A stretch of 63,533 bases of DNA, filler included, from 13 parts of 13 records of this genome joined end to end with filler, not necessarily neighbours in it, one strand, 5' to 3'. Positions 42,417 through 52,606 are shown, numbered from the whole stretch's first letter. Notes: generated from the letters alone by a model not told the origin. Translations and numbers: made by a program.

Positions 42417-43162
42417 AGCTCATCAGTGCAACGGAACCACCTCACTCATCTCGTCATTATCAACTTACGTGTGCTGATCACCGCAGATACGGAGCAGAGA
42501 TGGCGAACTTGCCATCATACCGTACAGGGAGCTCTTTATGTAATCATTGCTCTAGACCACAAACATCGATTCGCATGTGCCTCAGAAGCTAGCTATAACA
42601 GCAGCACCGGCCGTAACAGCACAACCCAAGCTCACTGCCGGCTGTGTCCGCATCATATGCACGCATGTTCCGTCCCAATTCACGTAAGAGATTATGCTAA
42701 TTGTGCAAGTCTACAAAACGGCGCAGCTGAACCACATAATCATCTCAATAATTACTCACTACATGTAGTCGAGGCGTAGTCCTCGGCTCAAACCCTAGCA
42801 CCTGTGCGCAATAAACTGATTACTCGTTCTGCCTTTTACCCGTGTCCAGATACATGTAGTGTCCAGACCCAAAGGCCTTATTATCTACGTATAGATCTAC
42901 TTTAGATCTACTTATCTATCATTCTGAGTTTTCAGTCTCATTAGGAGAGTGGCTGTGGCGACCGCNNNNNNNNNNNNNNNNNNNNNNNNNNNNNNNNNNN
43001 NNNNNNNNNTTAATTAATTAANNNNNNNNNNNNNNNNNNNNNNNNNNNNNNNNNNNNNNNNNNNNAGGCCGGCCGGAGCTCGAGGACTCCGACTAATAAC
43101 GCGTACATGCCCCGCCTTGCTGATTCGTTTCCGTTGGGGTGTTGGCGCCACGGTGCGTCAGG

Positions 43163-44162
43163 ATGACCGGCAAGATCAAGCGGCACAAACAGAACCGCAA
43201 GACAATGTTGCACTACCGGATGGCGCATCAGTTTACTGAACCCTACAAGCTGATCGGTGACCGCCGCCCGTCCCCCAGCAAGAGCCGGCCGGCAGTCGAT
43301 GGCCCATTAGTTCACACTGCGCTTGAGGCTAAAGTAGACCTGCGCTCGTCGCTGGACGAGGTCTTCGGTGGCAGAACGCACATCAGTGGCCTCCACGGGG
43401 CTGACCTGCCGGCTGAGTCCGGCCAGGCGCCACCCGCTGCGTGATCACCGAGCTTAAATCGGGGGGCGAGCCGCTGCGGGGGGCCCTGCTGGCGGCCCGA
43501 AGGTTCAGTTGCGTCCAGTGTGGGCACGCCCCAGGCACCGACCCACGGCAGTGCATCCAAGACATCGTCGGTGCCGCGGTCCGGCCCGGCAGTCTCAGCC
43601 GGCGCCAGGTCCAGACAACAAATCCAAGTACTGCGTAGGATCGGCCGACCCGGGTCTACAGGCGAGCTACAGGCCGGCGCGCGGTCAGCCCAGACACAGG
43701 CGGTGCTCCGGCGGCGTGGGTGTGTCCCGTTACTTCGGATCAAGATCAACGTCCCGTCTCTCGAGCCGCCAGCCCCTGTAGCGGCCAAAGCACCCGTGGC
43801 TCCGCAGGTAGGGCCCGTGCCAGCCGGGCCCGCAGCCGGAGGTAGGTGAGCCAGCAGACGCAAGCGCTGATCGACCAGGTGGCCGAGGCCTCCAAGAAGC
43901 GCAGGCGTGGCCCCAGAGAGCCCAACCCGCTCTCATGCAAGGTGCGGGCCCTTGACAAGCAGCCGGGCTCAGGGTGCTGCAGCGAAAAAAACTGGCTAAA
44001 CCGGAGGCCCAGCCACCAGCCAAACCCAAGCCGGCTTCCCAGCAGTCGCCGGTGGCGGACGGGCAACCAGTACCTGGGGCTAGCGGTAAGCGGAGGCGGA
44101 GGAAACGACGACCCAAGGCGAGCAGTAATGATGCAACTAGTGGCGCAAAAGGCGCATCATAA
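43163..44162 (+). CDS. UTP23: rRNA-processing PIN-domain protein UTP23 (multi-exon)
   Basis: KIKRHKQNRK...FTEPYKLI|VDG, CVITEL, CGH, VPLLRI..LEPP, and the signature GPREPNPLSCK|KKK. Confidence 0.85.
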
Positions 44163-44202
44163 ATTAATGTTGGGGTAGAAGTCATTTAATTAATGATAAT
44201 AA

Positions 44203-44957
44203 TTATGTTTCACCTAAGAACTGCCCACAATAACCTTTGCACGCATTTCTTACACATGCACGCGCGAACGGAATGTAGGAAAGGCAATACCTGTGTGCAA
44301 GATTATGGCGAAAGGCTCAAGCGGCGTACCATATCCATGCCAGAAGTTGAACGATGCACGAAATAATAATCAGGAGCACTCGAGTTTTGTTCGGAATCCC
44401 CTTCACCAGCGCAAATGTGATGGTTGTGGCGATTGCCAGCAAGAATATGATTGTGGCGATCCGTCGGCGCTCGTCAAACATTTGTCGAAGCTGGTTGCAA
44501 GGTCCTGCCCAGCCAGCTCAGCCGATGTGTATATGCACTCGAATGCACCCATCAAGAAAAAGGTGGCGCACAACGCCACAATGTTGCCCACCGAGTAAGT
44601 TGTTGCAAACGGGACGCAATTGCCGGCCAGACACGCGGCCACCCGGAAGAACGAGCCGAAGGCTAGGAGGTACCCGAAACCAGCGCACACCACAAACCCG
44701 ATCAGCCGCTGCTTGAATGTGAGCGTGGGGCAATACTCGTTGACCGCCTCGCTGACCTGCTCCTGTCCAGCCCGAGACTCAGGTACCACCGCCCAGCCCG
44801 GGCTGCCTTGGCGTCATCCACGCCTCTTTCTAGGTCGCTCTTGGGCGTCTCGGGCTCCTTGCCTAAAAGGTTGTACAAGCCCACCTGTGCGCCCGCTCGC
44901 CGGCCCAGGCAGCGGCCCGACCTTAGCCTCAGCAGCCGCTGCCTTGACCGACTCCAT
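44203..44957 (-). CDS. SFT2: Got1/Sft2-family vesicle transport protein (multi-exon)
   Basis: LTFKQRLIGFVVC, FATTYSVGNIVALCATFFLMG|PCNQLRQMFDERRRIAT and W|YCLSYIPFAR. Confidence 0.9.
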
Positions 44958-45078
44958 CGTTCCCGCCAACAGGGGCTCAGCCTTCTCAGTCAACTCCGTG
45001 GTTCAGGCGACATACCGGGCCAGCATGCCTGCCGCTGTGCCACTCAGAATCCGTTGGTTGGTGGACCAGTAGCACATC

Positions 45079-47254
45079 ATGCTCCGGGCTGTGCTGCGAG
45101 GCTGTGGCGGGCTCAGCCGGGCCCAGCTGGGTCAGCGGATGGCCCGACTCCTGGCAACCACCACTGTCGAGGTCCCGCCCCTGCCGCGCGCCGGCCCGAC
45201 CGCCGCAGGTCCCGCCGATGGGCGAGTCGATCACCGAGGGCACCGTGGTTGGATTCCTCAAGTCGGTTGGGGACCCGGTCGAGCTCGACGAGCCGGTGAT
45301 CCAGATCGAGACCGACAAGGCCCCCGCGCCCGCTATGCCCGGCCCGAGCCGCTGGCAGGTGACAGTGGACGTGCCGGCCCCGTCGGCCGGAGTGATCACT
45401 GAGTTCCTTGCCGGCGAGGAGGAAGAAGTTGAGGTGCCGTTGCGGCCAGTCCACGGGAGAGCCCCCGCCAGGTCGGCCAGCCTCTGTTCACCATCGACGA
45501 CAGCGCCGCCCCGGCTGCCGCTGCGGACACCCCGGCAGCGGCACCAGAGCCGGCGGCAGCCGAGCCCGCGGGGGATCCTGTGATGGTTAAGGTGCCCGCC
45601 ATGGGAGAGTCCATCACAGAGGGTGGGCTGGACGGGGGGGAGGCGGGGGCTGAGCTGGGCGGCAGGCGTGGTGGCCACCTGGCTCAAGCAGCCGGGCGAG
45701 GCGGTGGCGGCGGACGAAGTGATAGTCCAGATCGAAACTGACAAGGCGACTCAAACAAATCCAGACTCCGTCGCTCAGCCCCGGCCAGGTGACAGTGGAC
45801 GTGCCCGCGCCGTTCGACGGCGTGCTGGGCGAGCTGATGGTCGCGGAGGAGGTTGGGGCTCGGCCATTGGCCCGGCTGACACCCGGGACAGGACACTGTC
45901 GAGGTGGACGCCCCGCTGTTCAATATCACACCGGGCGCTCCGCCCGCTCAAGCAGCGCCGGCCGCCGCCCCGGCCGCAGCTCCGGCCGCAGCTCCGGCCG
46001 CAACCAAGCCAGCAGGCATGCAGCGCGCCGGCGCGGCCGCTCAACGCACTGCGACAGCTGCTGGGCCGCCCAAGCCTGAGCCGGTGCCGGCCAAAGCAGC
46101 GCCAGAGAAGACGGCCAGCCCCGGGAGGTGGCCCGGCGGGAGCGCTGGCCGGACTGAGCCGATGCAGCCGGGTGACACGGAATGAGCCGATGACTCGTAT
46201 GAGAAAGAAGATCGCCTCTGCTCTCAAGGAGTCGCAGGTGGCCCTCTAGCTGGGCCAGGCCAACCCCGACGGCACAGAACACGGCGGCGCTGCTCACTAC
46301 GTTTAACGAGGTCGACATGTCTGCGCTGATGGCGATGCGTTCTCAGTACAAGGTGTGAGCTGATACCGACAGCATTGACGGAAGAGTGCCGCAGGATATG
46401 TTCTTGGAAAAGCACGGGTGCAAGCTCGGGTGCGTCCCGCCAGTGCCGGGTTGTCGGTTCACCGGTGACAGACTGATGAGTCCATTCTTTGCGGCGTGTG
46501 CAAAGGCGTTAGTGGCGCAGCCAGCTATCAATTCTCAAATCCATGGCGATGAGCAGGCTCGGCTGTCAATCGATCCGCGTGCTAGCTGGTCGGGTGCAGG
46601 TTTTTCATGACTATGCCGATATCGGGTTTGCTGCAGCCACACCAAAGGTGGTCGCTTGAGCCGCGGAGCGCGTGACTGGTACGCCGGTCCAGGGGTTGGT
46701 GGTTCCTGTACTGCGGAATGTCGAATCAATGACGCTCAAGGACATCGAGAGTGGAGTGGCCGCCATGGGGGCCAAGGCCAAAGCCAACAAGATCGAGCTC
46801 TCAGACATGGTCAGCTCGTGGGCTGCTGGCCAGGCTGACGTGCGGCTCAGACCGGCGGCACTTTCAGCATCACTAATGGCGGAGTATTCGGGTCACTGAT
46901 TAGCACTCCGATCCTCTCGGTGCCCCCCTGCCAGCCTGCGGCTCAGAACGCATTAGGTGCCTCAATCTGCGATCTTAGGCATGCACGGCATCTTCAAACG
47001 GCCGGTAGCCGTCAACGGCCAGATAGAGGTACGCCTGTCTCGATTGAGACAGCTGGGGCTCAGAATCCATTCAGGTGAGACCGATGATGTATGTTGCACT
47101 GACCTACGACCACCGCATCGTGGATGGGAGGGAGGCGGTCACTTTCCTCAAATCGGTCAAGGAGAGCGTGGAGGATCCCATAAGGTGGGCTAGGCCTTAG
47201 GCAAGGGCTTAATTAGGGACTGACCACACGGCTAGGATGTTGTTGGACGTATGA
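45079..47254 (+). CDS. DLST: Mitochondrial 2-oxoglutarate dehydrogenase E2 (dihydrolipoamide succinyltransferase), two lipoyl domains, about 17 introns
   Basis: Arg/Leu-rich transit peptide; two copies of [10 protein letters not shown]...[50 protein letters not shown]; ends RMLLDV*. Confidence 0.95.
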
Positions 47255-47601
47255 GCAGTCTCACGCTCTTTAGATTTGATAATCATGGAACTGATAAGCT
47301 TGATCTTGGGGCTATTGAGCTGTGTGCCACGAAGGATTCATTTCTGAACAACACTCTTTTCTTTGTCTTCAAGTGCTTGAAAAAGTGACATCTTATAAAT
47401 ATTGAACTGAGCTTTTGAACTGATAAAAATAGCACATAGGTCTATATACTTAATAATTAAGGTCAGTCATACATGTACTCTCATTCATATTAGGGTCGTA
47501 CACATAGTACCGTTAGCCTATATAAGTAGCCTATGCGGCATAGTACAGGTACACGTAATAGCTTATCTACTGCGGTTCGAGTTGATACTCGTATGCTTTT
47601 A

Positions 47602-50600
47602 TCAATGTTCCGAAGGCACAGCAGGCATAGCGGCGCTCTCTTCTGCAACCTCTTCCGCCGGAGCCGGTTGGAAGTCGCTAGCCTCCGAGTCCGAAAGAAA
47701 GACCTTACAAGCAAACCAGCCGACGCTGTTAGTAGTGGCGCAATCGACCGCGCCAGCTACAATCGCTCCTATCACCGGGATTGCGTGCGACAAGGCAGAA
47801 CTGCTTGCTCTCTCACTCAGCTGCTTGCCTGCCGCCTTTGCGCTCTCGCGTTCCATCACCGCTGCGAACGACTTTTGGGCCGAGCTTTTGGCTGCAGACT
47901 CAGCTGCTTGGACCGCCACAGTCTCACTCAGGCCTTGCGCCATCCGCTGCTCCATGATCCGTGCGAATTGCTGCTTGTACACCGTTTCAGCCATCTGAAC
48001 AGCTGTCCTCCTCGCCACGTTCTGGGCTCCGGCTTCAAGACTCTTTTCGACCGTGTGCACTGCAATACCTTTGAGTGCCTGCGCAGTGGCTTTGGTCAGG
48101 CCTATCTTGCCTACACCTGTGTTTTTGCGCGCAGCCCGTGTGGTTTCGAGCAGCGCTGTGCTGGCGCGAGTGAACGAAGTGTGGAATGTACTGAGCGCAT
48201 CAGCTGCCCACTTCCAGTTGCCTGTGCTATCATACTCGGCGCGCGCCTCAGGGTCTGATAGCGTCTCGTACGCCGCAGCCAGCAGCTTAAACCTCTTTTC
48301 AGCTGTCTCCACACACTCAGGGTTCTTATCAGGGTGCCAGCGCAGAGCCTGCTTCCGATAAGCCCGTCGGATCTCAGTTTCCGAAGCCGACTTTTCGACT
48401 TTGAGTAGGCCGTACAGGTCGCTAATATCCACCTCGTCTTCTGGGGGAGCGACCTCGTTCTGATGATCAGCTCCCTGTGCCGATTCGTAATTAAATTCGG
48501 TGTATAAAGCGAGCTGTGACTGAGGCTGAGTTGGCTCAGGCGCAGTTGGGACACTATGCAGCCCTGTCCGGAGTTCCGCCACTTCTTTACCGCCAACAAT
48601 ACAATGGAGTACTGCATTACACACACGCGGCAGCCAAGGATCAAATCCGCAGACGTAGCTGATGGAGAAGGCCAGTCGGGCGCTGGTCATCCATGTGGCA
48701 AGCATAGCGGTTGGCACAGTTAGCGGCATGGTGACAAACCCACCAAACCCGGTGAGGAACCCAGTCCCAAAGTTGAGGCCAGCATGCCAGCGGACCAGCG
48801 AGTGGCATGCGCTGCTCGCGTTGTTACCTTTGGCATACCGCGGGGCTACAGTCATGGCGCCCTCGAATGATCCGGCCTCGTTCCCATTTAGCGCGTACGT
48901 GTACAGCAACTTGAGCAGAACCTGGGTCTTGTCGGCCGACTGGTAAAGGTCCCGCCACCAGGTAAGCTTCTCCTCGACTTGACGTCGATCCAGCTCACTG
49001 TCCACCTCAGGCCGAATGCTCTGCTCGAACAGCCGGCCGACTCTGAGCTGGAGCTTCTGGCCAAGACCCTCGCTGTTAGTGCCGGCTGCATCAAGTACGT
49101 GGAACTTCTCAGTGCCGCCGAGCTGCTCCGGCCGCAGTTGATTGTCCCACACTACCTGCACCACCAAGTCGCTGTCCTGATCTTCGGCTGCGGCTGCTTC
49201 TGAGTCACACACACTCACACTCACCGCCTTGGCTATCCATTTATCTGGCGATGCTCCTTCCTTCGGCTTGTCATTCGCTGTCTCTTCGTTGCCACTATCG
49301 GTCGCTGAGGTCTCACCGGTGAATAATGACCAGAATGAGCATGGCGGTGGCAGCGGCGCCTGGCCTTTGGGCGTGGTTGGATTCGCAGTACGAGCAGACA
49401 GCTCGGATGAGGCTTGGTGCACCAGCACGATCCTGCTGCGGAGCTCGGGTACAAACACATGCTCTGCGAACAGATCGCCTTGCACCCACACCGAGTGCGG
49501 GGCTGGGCCACTCCAAGCCGCGCCATAGACGATTGCATCGAACTCCTCCTCGCTAATTGGTACCTTCCAGCCGCCAGCAGACACCCGAAACCGTGCCAAC
49601 TCTGCGAGTACTGGATCGTGCTGCCCCTGAGACTGTACAAAGTGCACATCAACTGCAGTTTCGCCATGTAGCACCGGTCGCCGTAACAAGCTGTTAGTGA
49701 CTGCCCATTTGCCCGGCTCGGACGGTCCGCCAATCCGGAGCTCTGCCAGCAGCGACACCTGTTTTGAGGCCAGATCGAGGCAGTCCTGGAGCGCATTGTC
49801 GCCCTGCATGAACTCTTTGGCACCGGTGGACAGCTCAGAAAGCTTGTCACTCAGCTCACGGATCGAGCACTCGAGCTCAGAGAATTGGGAGAGAAGGCGG
49901 TGCTTCCTGAACTCGGCCAGCAGGTGCTTGCCCTGAGCTAGGCTCCAGGCCATAACTGCCGGCTCCAAGTGCTGCTTAACCAGTTCCCCAAGTGAGGCCG
50001 TATCAGTGAGGCTCACCCAGCTACTTGGAGCTGGGCTCCAAGGGCAGCTTGCGGCCAGCGCCTTGGCTTGCGTCAGCTCACTCGACGAGAGGAGATCGGC
50101 CTTGGTTCTGACTTGAACAGTCGGCTCCAACTGGCACTCAGCCAGCGCCACAGAGCCGGCTGGCCTGCACAGGACCACTACAGGAAACCGATGCTGCAGC
50201 TGCTCCACAGGGAGCTCCGCCGGAGTATCCACTAGCACCAAGCTCACCCCGGACCGCCAGACTGCGCCCTGCGCACACCCGAGTCAGCCACTCTCACTGG
50301 ATAGGAGGGTCACCTCAGAGATAATAGAGCCCCGCAGTATGAGCTCTTCTGCCGATTCCTCGCGACGCTCCAGGAAATCGCCCAACGAGTCGCCGCAGTA
50401 GTACGCCCTCTGGCTCCACTCGAGCGGGTCGACCGCGACGCCGTCGGCTGTGAGGTAGCTGAGCTCGGCACTGGTCGCTGAATGCTCCAAGCGGACCAGA
50501 GAGGCTGTGCACGGGCCGAGCCTAGCCTTGAGCAACTCAGCCGAGCCGAGCAGTCTATTGATCAGGCTAGACTTGCCGCTATCGTGCCCCCCCACGAATG

Positions 50601-51601
50601 CCACCTCGCAGCTCCGCGAGAGTGCCGCCTCGACCATTGCCACCAGTCGGCCGGCCCGGCTGTCTGCGAGCATCGCTTCTATTTGCTCCAAGATCTGGCT
50701 CCGTTGTTCCATCCACGCGAGAGCGATCGAATCCGGCCCGCCAGCCCTGTCCAGCTCGCCGCGCGCCGGCTGCCAGAGCGCCCGGGACTCGGCAGGCTCT
50801 GCAAAAGGCTGCGCTGGCTGCACTGCCTGGGGGGCGAGGGCGCTCTGCCCGCTGTGCGTTAACCCGGCGGAGCTAAGCAGCTGCCGGAGCGGGCCGAGGT
50901 GCTGTCGGCACCCGGTCAGTCTCGGCGCGGGTAGGTGGCTATTCATCCAGTCACCTGCCGCCACCAGGCCGCCAGCTCGCTGGGTGGAGTCATCGCGAGC
51001 CCGGCGCTGTGCTTAGCAGCCACCCTCGAAGCCTAACCCGACCATTACGCTGGGCACAATCAGCCGGCCGACCTCCAGCGCCCACGCCCAGCTGGCCATG
51101 CACTCTGGGTCAGGCAAAAAGAGCACCAGCGACGCGCTGTTATTGCCTGATCGGATCGTCAGATAGTTCTTGGGCTTGTCTATGCAGATTTCACTGGCGT
51201 GCAGCAGAGACAGCGGCGGGCGAGCGTCGGCCGCAGAGGGCAGCTTGCTCCGCCGCGCCACCAGCACCTGTGCACCATGGGCCGGCGGTCAGCTCGGCCG
51301 GCCGGCCGGGCACCCCGCCGGCCAGTTCTAGCCACAGCTCCGGCCATTGGGAAAAAAAGGTCCCCGGCACCTGCCAGCCCATCGCGCGCGCGGGCGGGCC
51401 GGCGGGCGGCACCATAATCTGTGCCGGCCCGCACTTGTTGGGCACCCCGCCCGCACTCAGCCAGTCGGCGAGCTGGTCGATGCACCCGGCTGCCACCAGC
51501 TGAGCGAACGACAGCCCCGGCCCGGCGTCCCGGCTGGCCCGGCGGCCGGAGGGCGGCGGCGTGGGCGGCGGCCGGTAGTTGGGCGGGAAACTGATCTTCA
51601 T
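47602..51601 (-). CDS. PH + dynamin-N/Era-like P-loop GTPase + EcsC-family domain with an inserted DnaJ J-domain (multi-exon; start uncertain)
   Basis: PH-like exon ending CMASWAWALE; G1 GGHDSGKS; LVDTPA; TKAD; EcsC-like TGFLTGFGGFVTMPLTVP; J-domain DLYGLLKV...WHPDKNP...AYETLSDPEARAEYD; EcsC-like end AIPVIGAIVAGAVDCATTNSVG. Confidence 0.75.
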
Positions 51602-51904
51602 CGCAGCGCGAGAGGTCGGCCTCCCTTGGCTCCTTCACTGGGAGGCAGGACCGGCCGCCTCCTTCACTCGGAGGCAAGCCCGCTGCAGCCGCGGCCGTGA
51701 GCCAGAGAAATCTGGAGGACAGCACCGGCGCGCAGGCGGAGGCAGCGGCGGCAGAGGAGAGAGCGGTCTGCCCGTCCCCAGTAAGGATCAAGGAGTCTCT
51801 CCTCTCCCCGACGCCGGCGGTGGCGCGCTGTCAAGCTGGCGCGCGAGGCCGGGCCGATCATTCCGACCCCCGGCCGTCGGGTAGTCCGCAAGCAGTTTCG
51901 GGCT

Positions 51905-52606
51905 GTGCTGGACCGGCTGGAGTCTGCCCGTCTGCTCCCGCAGTTCGCTGAGCTTCCCCCGGCAGACCGGCAGATCCAGTGGAGCCAGCTTCCAGCTGCG
52001 GTGGACCCGTGCAGGCAGCAGCCGCCGATGCCGCCCGCGCGCGCCGGGCGGAAGCGGCTCCAGATCGAGGGCATGTGGCGGGGGCTGGAGCCGCTGGTGA
52101 AGCACCTGACCGCCCCTGTGCTGGTAGACTTTTGCGGCGGCTGCGCCAACCTCGGCCTGCCGCTCGCTGCGCTGCTCCCCTCGGCTCGAGTGATTGTGGC
52201 GGACGTCAACGAGCATTCCCTCGAGATCGCCCGGGCTCGGGCGGCCGAGGCGGGGCTCGCCAACCTGGAGCTCTGGCTGGGAGACGTTCGGCAGTTCGGG
52301 GGCCGATTCGATGCGGGACTGGCCTTGCACGCGTGCGGTGAGGCAACGGACGTCTCACTCGAGCGGTGTGTGGAGAGTGGTGCGGCTTACTTGATGTGCC
52401 CTTGCTGCGTGGGTAAGCTGCGCAGCGACCGATCGGCAGACGTGCACGTGGGTTTGAGCTCAGTGAGCTATCCACGGAGCGCGCGGCTGCGCGAGGTGCT
52501 CAGCCAGCGGGAGTACGATTTGCTTGCCACGGCTGGCGACCACGCCGAGGAGCGGTCCGGTCTGGCTGTGGGGCACCAACTTGCCAAGGCTGTGCTGGAG
52601 ATGGAC
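51905..52606 (+). CDS. SAM-dependent methyltransferase, GSTCD/Methyltransf_32-like (3'-truncated; start unclear)
   Basis: Motifs WSQLPAAVDP, RKRLQIE, LVDFCGGCANLGLPLA, LALHACGEATD, MCPCCVGK and YPRS. Confidence 0.85.

Follow-up and report, generated by a model that had tools for sequence, protein, structure and literature searches.

A J-domain set within an EcsC-like domain in a predicted multidomain protein of a marine protist

The gene described here lies on the minus strand of a 63,533-nt stretch of DNA (the window), in a eukaryotic piece of 9.5 kb (43066-52606), and encodes a J-domain inserted into an EcsC-like domain. Its last exon holds the first EcsC-like part, the J-domain and the second EcsC-like part in that order, the J-domain enters the EcsC-like domain at one exact point, and the same module is conserved in several protists; in a relative, the region from the G3 motif of a G domain to the J-domain is carried on one mRNA. 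The locus is probably one nuclear gene of a marine heterotrophic protist, encoding about 1290 residues in four exons separated by three tiny introns. On balance, we favour a reading in which this four-exon gene encodes a PH-like module, a divergent dynamin-like or mitofusin-type G domain, a coiled coil, a probable second G-like domain with a degenerate P-loop and the EcsC-like domain with its inserted J-domain. The product is an uncharacterised variant on the J-protein theme, built on a domain of unassigned function.

An open reading frame (ORF) of 893 codons on the minus strand (50283-47605, with the stop reaching 47602) holds the EcsC-J-EcsC part in one open frame, as a first-pass annotation of this DNA had stated; the motifs that it named, GGHDSGKS (50592-50569), HPD (48336-48328), DTPA and TKAD, had likewise been correctly located. 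The J-domain was matched by Pfam DnaJ (PF00226) over residues 622-685 at 83 bits (E 1.6e-23; cut-off 27.8 bits), covering profile positions 1-63 of 63. In a 15-row alignment (A1), the HPD tripeptide is kept in all nine rows that span the J-domain. In an AlphaFold2 (AF2) model, the predicted local distance difference test score (pLDDT) of the J-domain was 88-96. Fold comparison with VIA-align gave 2dmx (Z 11.7, root-mean-square deviation 4.0, 77 residues aligned) and 3apq (Z 11.2, deviation 1.2, 68 aligned), and Foldseek matched it to 2ej7 (E 4e-4). When PDB sequences were searched with the family profile, only J-domains were matched, those of Sec63 among them (E 1.1e-13). Judged by its profile match, its HPD and its predicted four-helix fold, the J-domain is intact and fully canonical.

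The EcsC-like domain was detected with PDC-S29, a PADLOC profile of 220 positions, which matched the whole ORF at 118 bits (E 1e-34). Taken alone, the 157-residue stretch ahead of the J-domain matched PDC-S29 positions 13-135 (E 1.4e-25), and the last 207 residues, after the J-domain, matched positions 136-216 (E 1.6e-9) and also PDC-S30 (E 2.6e-6). An insertion of ~215 residues, made up of a linker, the J-domain and two long Ala/Gln/Glu-rich helices, therefore separates the adjacent PDC-S29 positions 135 and 136. An EcsC-type profile thus matches on both sides of the J-domain, and the architecture read by the first-pass annotation, a J-domain inside an EcsC-like domain and behind a P-loop GTPase-like region, is confirmed. 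With Pfam EcsC (PF12787; 240 positions, gathering score 30.4 bits), the parts taken alone scored weakly and in the right order, the part before the J-domain at positions 86-152 (E 0.11) and the part after it at positions 181-235 (E 0.01). Natural controls were found among the relatives: P0033 matches PDC-S29 positions 14-215 in one stretch and has a weaker J-domain at its C-terminus, and P0011 has both EcsC-like parts and no J-domain. A third relative, P0018, carries a U-box ahead of its EcsC-like domain and has a shorter insertion. By these profile matches, the EcsC-like domain is truly split by the J-domain.

We then considered how the two EcsC-like parts might be arranged. An AF2 model of the C-terminal part, built from a 38-row alignment, had a mean pLDDT of 76.8 and a predicted template modelling score (pTM) of 0.50; pLDDT exceeded 90 in the J-domain, in the first EcsC-like part and in the last conserved helix. 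When the two EcsC-like parts were modelled with ESMFold2 as separate chains, the ipSAE was 0.71 (0.70/0.73/0.71), compared to 0.00 for the best control, with contact agreement between runs of at least 32% and a partner pLDDT of at least 53. The mark set for this two-chain test is reached by 51 of 78 solved complexes and by 2 of 108 mismatched pairs (for eukaryotes, 39 of 65 and 2 of 126). In the predicted interface, the last helix (849-871; DCATT...VG...F) packs against helices 488-501, 530-547 and 557-576. The two-chain models support, without proving, an arrangement in which the two parts would form one folded domain from which the J-domain is looped out.

Two points weigh against an EcsC domain split in this way. 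The Pfam EcsC score of the gene product stays below the 30.4-bit cut-off, at 22 bits for the whole ORF (residues 801-862, E 1.5e-4) and 24.7 bits for the C-terminal 469 aa, and the two-chain models were made by ESMFold2 from single sequences, without alignments, with a pLDDT of 54-63 within the chains themselves. On the first point, homologues pass the Pfam cut-off in their first part (P0005 at 44.3, P0002 at 34.6 and P0008 at 30.5 bits), and in a Pfam scan of the first ten relatives both DnaJ and EcsC were found in seven, three of which pass the EcsC cut-off in the first part. The gene product is thus, by sequence comparison, an EcsC member through transitive homology, its own Pfam score lying below the cut-off. 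Fold searches with the C-terminal model returned J-domain and generic long-helix matches only; they barely tested the EcsC-like part and say nothing of its fold class. Among the closest known systems are the bacterial EcsC and single-gene PDC-S29/PDC-S30 families: both halves of the domain match them in order, and close homologues pass the Pfam cut-off. The bacterial proteins are small, whereas the present domain forms the C-terminal portion of a ~1290-residue protein and is interrupted by 215 residues that include the J-domain. Two peptide patterns drawn from the protist motifs found no EcsC-like relative in 185,579 prokaryote genomes, and the single locus confirmed by tblastn was a J-domain only. 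A 25-nt GTGAGT...CTCAG segment at 49224-49200 was considered as a retained intron and rejected, as the residues that it encodes are conserved in Telonema and in P0015.

The EcsC-J-EcsC module is rare, yet not unique to this gene. An HMMER pass over 1.84 billion representatives returned 14 proteins at E <=1e-30, and the module occurs in about nine 50%-identity clusters of public data. The first-pass annotation had not recognised the architecture; this holds in so far as no paper on an EcsC and J-domain build was found in a literature search that covered main texts, but the module itself recurs in those clusters, Telonema and Mucochytrium included. The closest known relative of the gene is found in Telonema subtile and is represented by the transcripts P0152 and P0167 (EukProt EP00656; P005004 and P005003, respectively). 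P0167 shares 54% identity with the long ORF over 767 residues (ORF residues 14-763), which places the whole region from G3 and the coiled coil, across the first EcsC-like part, to the J-domain and the next helices on one mRNA in a cultured relative. The Telonema proteins keep DTPA and GSSEPGKW as well as the first EcsC-like part, the J-domain and its trailing helices; the difference is that the transcripts are cut at both ends, so that any P-loop and PH-like parts are not seen in them. The first 23 residues of P0152 and P0167 and the last 13 of P0152 are presumably translated sequencing adapter, so the true protein ends are not readable from these transcripts.

A second type of relative is found in Mucochytrium quahogii, with three UniRef entries named only 'J domain-containing protein'. 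One of these, P0002 (MMETSP, UniRef100_A0A7S2RY38), is 695 aa long and runs from a degenerate G-like region through the first EcsC-like part and the J-domain to the second EcsC-like part; unlike the gene described here, proteins of this type are without the G1-bearing domain and the PH-like module. The one locus found in a narrower alignment scan of metagenomes, L001, encodes P0005 in a single 616-codon ORF, with no G domain upstream. Other relatives vary the partner of the EcsC-like domain, with a U-box in front (P0018) or a weak J-domain at the C-terminus (P0033 and P0044), and these are differing ways to couple the EcsC-like domain to protein quality control. In a paralogous type (P0151 and P0001), a WW-like stretch (P0151 ~262-290, for which Pfam WW gives E 2.2 only) and a PH-like stretch (~330-415) lie mid-protein. 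The PH-like module is N-terminal in the present gene; either its place has shifted from one paralogue to another or the gene models are not equivalent.

The remainder of the gene model lies upstream of the long ORF. The same frame holds two further open stretches, one of 242 codons (51012-50287) and one of 91 codons (51288-51016), which are each ended by a single stop, and a 147-codon stretch in another frame holds the first ATG, at 51601. At least one upstream exon is required, because the sequence conserved with Telonema begins at ORF residue 14, without an ATG ahead of it. The adjacent same-frame ORF carries G1 and a G2-like Thr and the long ORF carries DTPA and TKAD, so a whole G domain is obtained only if the two are joined. 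Two PH-like pieces lie in different frames and yet align to successive segments of P0151, at residues 301-352 and 365-413 (E 0.003 each). All three upstream pieces have a coding pattern of GC content by codon position, lowest at the second position and highest at the third, and the candidate introns of 46, 42 and 45 nt resemble in size those of a neighbouring E2 gene (41, 37 and 46 nt). The first-pass annotation had joined the exons through GT-AG introns of about 40, 53 and 45 nt; the need for an upstream exon stands, and the lengths give way to best candidates of 46 (or 70), 42 and 45 nt. For intron 1, the donor at 51313 was the best in spliced alignment to P0151; the 46-nt form scores 83 and the 70-nt form 89, both within the top 3 of the 85 candidates that remain open. 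For intron 3, the eight best candidates score 94-101, compared to 94 for the downstream exon alone; they are not distinguishable and the borders are unsettled.

Several observations weigh against the joined model. There are 5621 ways of removing up to three GT-AG introns that leave an open frame downstream of the ATG at 51601, and joining in frame is therefore no evidence in itself. In four public runs that were aligned, none of the three introns is crossed by a read or contig: runs X10 and X11 yielded nothing, the DNA run X1 yielded three short contigs, and X7, one metatranscriptome, yielded two 151-nt RNA contigs within the last exon (47769-47919 and 48000-48150). The exon joins that the first-pass annotation had wished to see in RNA therefore did not appear, and RNA cover without joints neither supports nor contradicts the introns. 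With the P-loop exon included, the spliced-alignment score climbs from 94 to no more than 96-101. This exon also has no near relative, with one weak bacterial dynamin match (E 2.2e-4) in the 'longer' search and none in the 'near' search, and it showed no significant similarity to the 52 Telonema residues upstream of G3 (best E 0.53; a PLEW match at E 1.1).

An over-joined model, in which the PH-like exons, or these together with the P-loop exon, are a separate upstream gene or an untranslated leader and the protein starts closer to its conserved part, would fit the many open intron combinations and the RNA without joints. It would also fit the in-frame ATGs within the P-loop ORF (for example at 50712), the relatives P0002-P0010 and locus L001, which are without the G1-bearing domain, and the mid-protein position of the PH-like module in P0151 and P0001. 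However, the 893-aa ORF has no ATG ahead of its conserved residue 14, the G1/G2 and G3/G4 pieces complete a G domain only when joined, and coding composition runs through all the pieces. Moreover, the TAA at 51013 is separated from the next in-frame ATG (~50946) by 67 nt, too short for a terminator and a promoter, and in the paralogues the PH-like module is in the same polypeptide. We consider over-joining unlikely. The P-loop exon is likely joined to the long ORF, and the PH-like exons are likely part of the gene as well, with somewhat less assurance.

Within the joined model, the G1 P-loop GGHDSGKS (GxxxxGKS) is intact. Dynamin_N (PF00350) matches the 242-codon ORF at 30.5 bits (cut-off 27) over profile positions 1-45 of 168. 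Other matches of the G1 region are EngB (E 0.0017), SynDLP Slr0869 (E 0.02) and mitofusin-1 (E 0.6) among PDB sequences, and the profiles of LeoA from PADLOC (E 1.9e-6) and DynA from NCBIfam (E 2.2e-5). The likeness to BDLP, SynDLP, mitofusin, LeoA and DynA covers the G1 region and the next 40 residues, and the G1-to-G3 spacing of ~100 residues is like that of dynamin. In the long ORF, DTPA is residues 19-22 and TKAD is residues 61-64. G3 is thus not DxxG, and DTPA is read in all three covering sequences (this gene, P0021 and Telonema P0152/P0167); at G4 this gene has the canonical TKAD, and the relatives read TMSD and TMFD. The dynamin-like label of the first-pass annotation stands for the first 45 of the 168 Dynamin_N positions and for the weak SynDLP, mitofusin and LeoA matches, and goes no further; G3 is DTPA, and no stalk, paddle or GED was detected. 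An EngB-type reading, with G3 at LSYLTADG in the upstream exon as in a phmmer alignment, was rejected, as DTPA is conserved in all three sequences and an extra strand would be left before TKAD.

The region after the coiled coil was also examined. The 'helical region' of the earlier annotation is in part this coiled coil, and what remains of it resembles a degenerate second G-like domain, for which we put the chances as even. In this region GSSEPGKW is kept in Telonema and lost in the paralogues, and in Mucochytrium-type relatives the region is the only G-like part kept. An hhalign comparison set it in register with the P-loop exon across 82 columns (E 0.0059, at a probability of only 6%). Atlas protein-language features for residues 100-330 fell in MMR_HSR1/Dynamin_N clusters at 0.89, a lead only, and AF2 predicted alternating strands and helices, at moderate confidence in a weak model. 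The sequence GPSEPGKW...NSLL parallels the true P-loop GGHDSGKS...NRLL 270 residues upstream, and looks like a tandem G-like duplication with a degenerate second copy. The PH-like module is a pattern-level call. What remains of the earlier PH-like exon is the pair of collinear P0151 matches; Atlas features of the P0151 counterpart fell in PH clusters at only 0.75-0.81, again a lead.

Counting against this account of the N-terminal half are the following. The Dynamin_N match stays within positions 1-45/46 of 168, even with the intron bridged by X, and no Pfam profile reaches into the second G-domain half. The AF2 model of the G region (12 sequences) has a mean pLDDT of 52.4 and a pTM of 0.32, and is confident only in the coiled coil. 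GTP hydrolysis, and even guanine specificity, appear doubtful from the motifs, with a G3 that has no Gly and relatives that have no G4 Lys. No Pfam PH family matched the two PH-like pieces (E <=1), nor P0151 or P0001 (E <=5).

The possible membrane role of the EcsC-like domain was considered from hydrophobicity and conservation. The domain is Gly-rich and predicted to be all-helical, and its helices are only moderately hydrophobic: Kyte-Doolittle windows of 19 residues peak at 1.25 in the first EcsC-like part and 1.66 in the second. In a 10-row alignment, the polar residues T507, T511, T522, T533, R536 and D548 of the first part are invariant, and the DCATT motif of the second part is present in 12 of the 13 covering rows of alignment A1, P0010 reading DSGTT. 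On these three observations membrane insertion is a weak claim, and the conserved polar residues look as much like a putative binding site as an anchor. The same features would suit a nucleotide-independent, pseudo-GTPase scaffold, in which a tethered J-protein would use its EcsC-like domain as a soluble, client-binding helical bundle with no membrane role. Such a scaffold would also explain DTPA in all three sequences, the loss of the G4 Lys in two of the three and the loss of the second G-like P-loop in the paralogues. Set against it are the perfect GxxxxGKS G1 and canonical TKAD G4 of this gene, and the fact that an Ala in place of the G3 Gly keeps the backbone NH that contacts the gamma-phosphate in Ras-type switches. 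We regard the scaffold as improbable and retain the reading with a divergent G domain.

J-domains with an HPD motif recruit Hsp70 and trigger its ATPase. In the mechanism that we propose, the two EcsC-like parts would fold as one domain, with the J-domain looped out at a surface loop. The looped-out J-domain would recruit cytosolic Hsp70 and fire its ATPase beside the EcsC-like domain, and Hsp70 would then act on what this domain holds or forms, for example an oligomer or a state bound to a membrane. The place and timing of Hsp70 action would be governed by the G-domain pair together with the PH-like module. We infer a Hsp70-coupled, nucleotide-switched protein that is possibly membrane-bound, and as a working class it may be a site-specific class C J-protein, closest to Sec63, auxilin/GAK and RME-8. 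As in Sec63/ERdj2 and other J-proteins whose J-domain is in a loop of a membrane domain, the J-domain here is mid-chain and would be looped out from the helices of a second domain, which brings Hsp70 to a fixed site. Beyond the J-domain the two are unrelated in sequence and fold, and a membrane-spanning domain is only putative here. Auxilin/GAK and RME-8 (DNAJC6/26/13) combine a lipid-binding or PH-like module with a J-domain, and through them Hsc70 dismantles membrane coats. The likeness is in a targeting module and a J-domain within a large multidomain protein; the differences are that no PTEN-like domain, clathrin-binding region or IWN repeats were found here, and that the PH-like module here lacks a Pfam match. 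To our knowledge, auxilin/GAK and RME-8 have neither a G domain nor an EcsC-like domain.

An alternative function is that of an immune or stress effector of prokaryotic origin, in which the EcsC-like domain would be a toxic or membrane-perturbing module, as its bacterial relatives from defence islands may be, controlled by Hsp70, by ubiquitination (as in the U-box relatives) and by an NTPase sensor pair like those of many NTPase-based immune proteins. The top profiles are the PADLOC phage-defence candidates PDC-S29 and PDC-S30, and the only PADLOC match of the P-loop exon is LeoA. In a preprint, EcsC-like (PF12787) genes are noted in putative operons with the jumbo-phage sensor jukA; the EcsC literature otherwise consists of genome listings. 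Partner shuffling, seen here in the U-box (P0018) or C-terminal J-domain (P0033 and P0044) relatives, is typical of effector modules. However, PDC systems are candidates from genomic context, and in the literature searched PDC-S29 appears only as a strain-table entry in one paper, where the gene of S. thermophilus ST1A spans 735 nt. The LeoA match is to a generic P-loop region, a search of viral contigs found no relatives, and no toxicity or membrane activity of EcsC proteins was reported in the literature searched. Nor do the neighbouring genes (2-oxoacid dehydrogenase E2, a Got1/Sft2 protein and a methyltransferase) suggest an immune cluster. Two peptide patterns drawn from the protist motifs found no EcsC-like relative in 185,579 prokaryote genomes, and the single locus confirmed by tblastn was a J-domain only.

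The PADLOC and jukA links lend some colour to the defence-effector reading, which we nevertheless hold to be unlikely. The membrane-remodelling or defence role proposed by the first-pass annotation thus keeps the phage-defence profiles in its favour, is not helped by hydrophobic windows of only 1.2-1.66, and stays a conjecture. In a broader scenario, which we would give little weight, the EcsC-like domain would be an old prokaryotic effector module, from the defence-island families PDC-S29 and PDC-S30, that a few protist lineages have taken over and wired to Hsp70 (through a J-domain appended or inserted at profile position 135/136), to ubiquitin (through a U-box) and to a tandem active/degenerate G switch with a PH-like lipid reader. 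If so, the gene would encode a cell-autonomous immune or membrane-stress protein, with an effector armed or disarmed by Hsp70.

Under the preferred reading, a site-specific J-protein, the interest lies in the targeting domain. Class C J-proteins tell Hsp70 where to work, and a new targeting domain suggests a new client or site. Here that domain is EcsC-like, from a family that is widespread in bacteria, has no assigned function and is seen among phage-defence candidates. The inserted J-domain, the appended J-domain and the U-box in front together offer a concrete handle on EcsC function. PDC-S29 position 135/136 appears to mark a surface loop with room for 60 to 215 additional residues, which may be useful for tagging or engineering bacterial EcsC proteins. 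A G domain has been added in the lineage of this gene and Telonema, the P-loop itself being seen only in this gene, and a G-domain pair that is as yet uncharacterised is thereby added for the Telonemia-like protists, a poorly sampled group.

The features of the gene and its neighbours are listed in Table 1. The window consists of 13 contigs, split by 24 runs of 44 N that occur in pairs (3609-60478); the 12-base spacer between paired runs reads as stops in all frames, and features are not readable across the joins. The public runs that hold parts of the window are marine, seawater or aquatic metagenomes (14 listed, 9 with a part, each with at most 0.13 of the sampled words).

Table 1. Features of the J/EcsC gene and of neighbouring genes, in window coordinates (GC123, GC content at codon positions 1, 2 and 3)
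Feature	Position	Strand	Basis
Candidate exon 1, 96 codons: Pro-rich start, short helical stretch, first PH-like strands	51314-51601	minus	residues 43-108 of ORF piece match P0151 301-352, E 0.003; GC123 0.70/0.63/0.89
Candidate intron 1, 46 nt, GT-AG; alternative acceptor 51244 gives 70 nt	51268-51313	minus	spliced alignment
Candidate exon 2, 73 codons: second PH-like half, C-terminal helix with conserved Trp	51049-51267	minus	P0151 365-413, E 0.003, collinear with exon 1; GC123 0.61/0.50/0.78
Candidate intron 2, 42 nt, GTAATG...CACAG, removes TAA 51015-51013	51007-51048	minus	among the open intron combinations; size like those of the neighbour; without RNA or homology support
Candidate exon 3, 231 codons: low-complexity linker, first G-domain half, G1 GGHDSGKS 50592-50569, G2-like Thr	50314-51006	minus	Dynamin_N; GC123 0.69/0.54/0.77
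Candidate intron 3, 45 nt, GT-AG, CTGAC 16 nt ahead of AG, removes TGA 50286-50284	50269-50313	minus	upstream exon needed
Second G-domain half: G3 DTPA (Gly to Ala), G4 TKAD	49999-50268	minus	sequence reading
Coiled-coil linker, ORF residues ~95-179	49747-49998	minus	AF2 helices 238-301 and 306-322 of model, block pLDDT 74-90
Putative degenerate second G-like domain, ORF residues ~180-308, starts GPSEPGKW	49360-49746	minus	hhalign, Atlas, AF2
EcsC-like first part, ORF residues 449-572, invariant TGFxTGFGGF...MPxTxP...W.TS.RLAF	48568-48939	minus	PDC-S29 13-135
J-domain, ORF residues 622-685	48229-48420	minus	Pfam DnaJ, fold
Ala/Gln/Glu-rich long helices, ORF residues ~686-787, still within the insertion	47923-48228	minus	AF2 helices 267-297 and 307-358, block pLDDT 54-83; shorter in P0002-type relatives
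EcsC-like second part, ORF residues 788-866, IPxxGAxxxGxxDCATT.SVG	47686-47922	minus	PDC-S29 136-216, PDC-S30
Acidic C-terminal tail, TGA stop 47604-47602, then A+T-rich sequence	47602-47685	minus	sequence reading
Got1/Sft2-like gene	44406-44813	minus	neighbour
2-oxoacid dehydrogenase E2 gene, lipoyl and catalytic domains	~44950-47200	plus	neighbour
Methyltransferase gene, runs into the end of the piece	51785-52606	plus	neighbour

The neighbouring E2 gene has three GT-AG introns on the plus strand, at 46810-46850 (41 nt), 46920-46956 (37 nt) and 47029-47074 (46 nt), and their removal restores conserved E2 motifs; the source organism therefore has very small introns, of 37-46 nt in this gene. 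In each of these introns a CTGAC/CTCAG-like motif lies 10-16 nt ahead of the AG. The J/EcsC gene and the methyltransferase gene are divergent, with at most 200-300 nt between their likely starts (51635-51785), and this spacing suggests a compact shared promoter region. One DNA contig of run X1 is without 6 bases at 51688, in this divergent intergenic region, a small strain difference.

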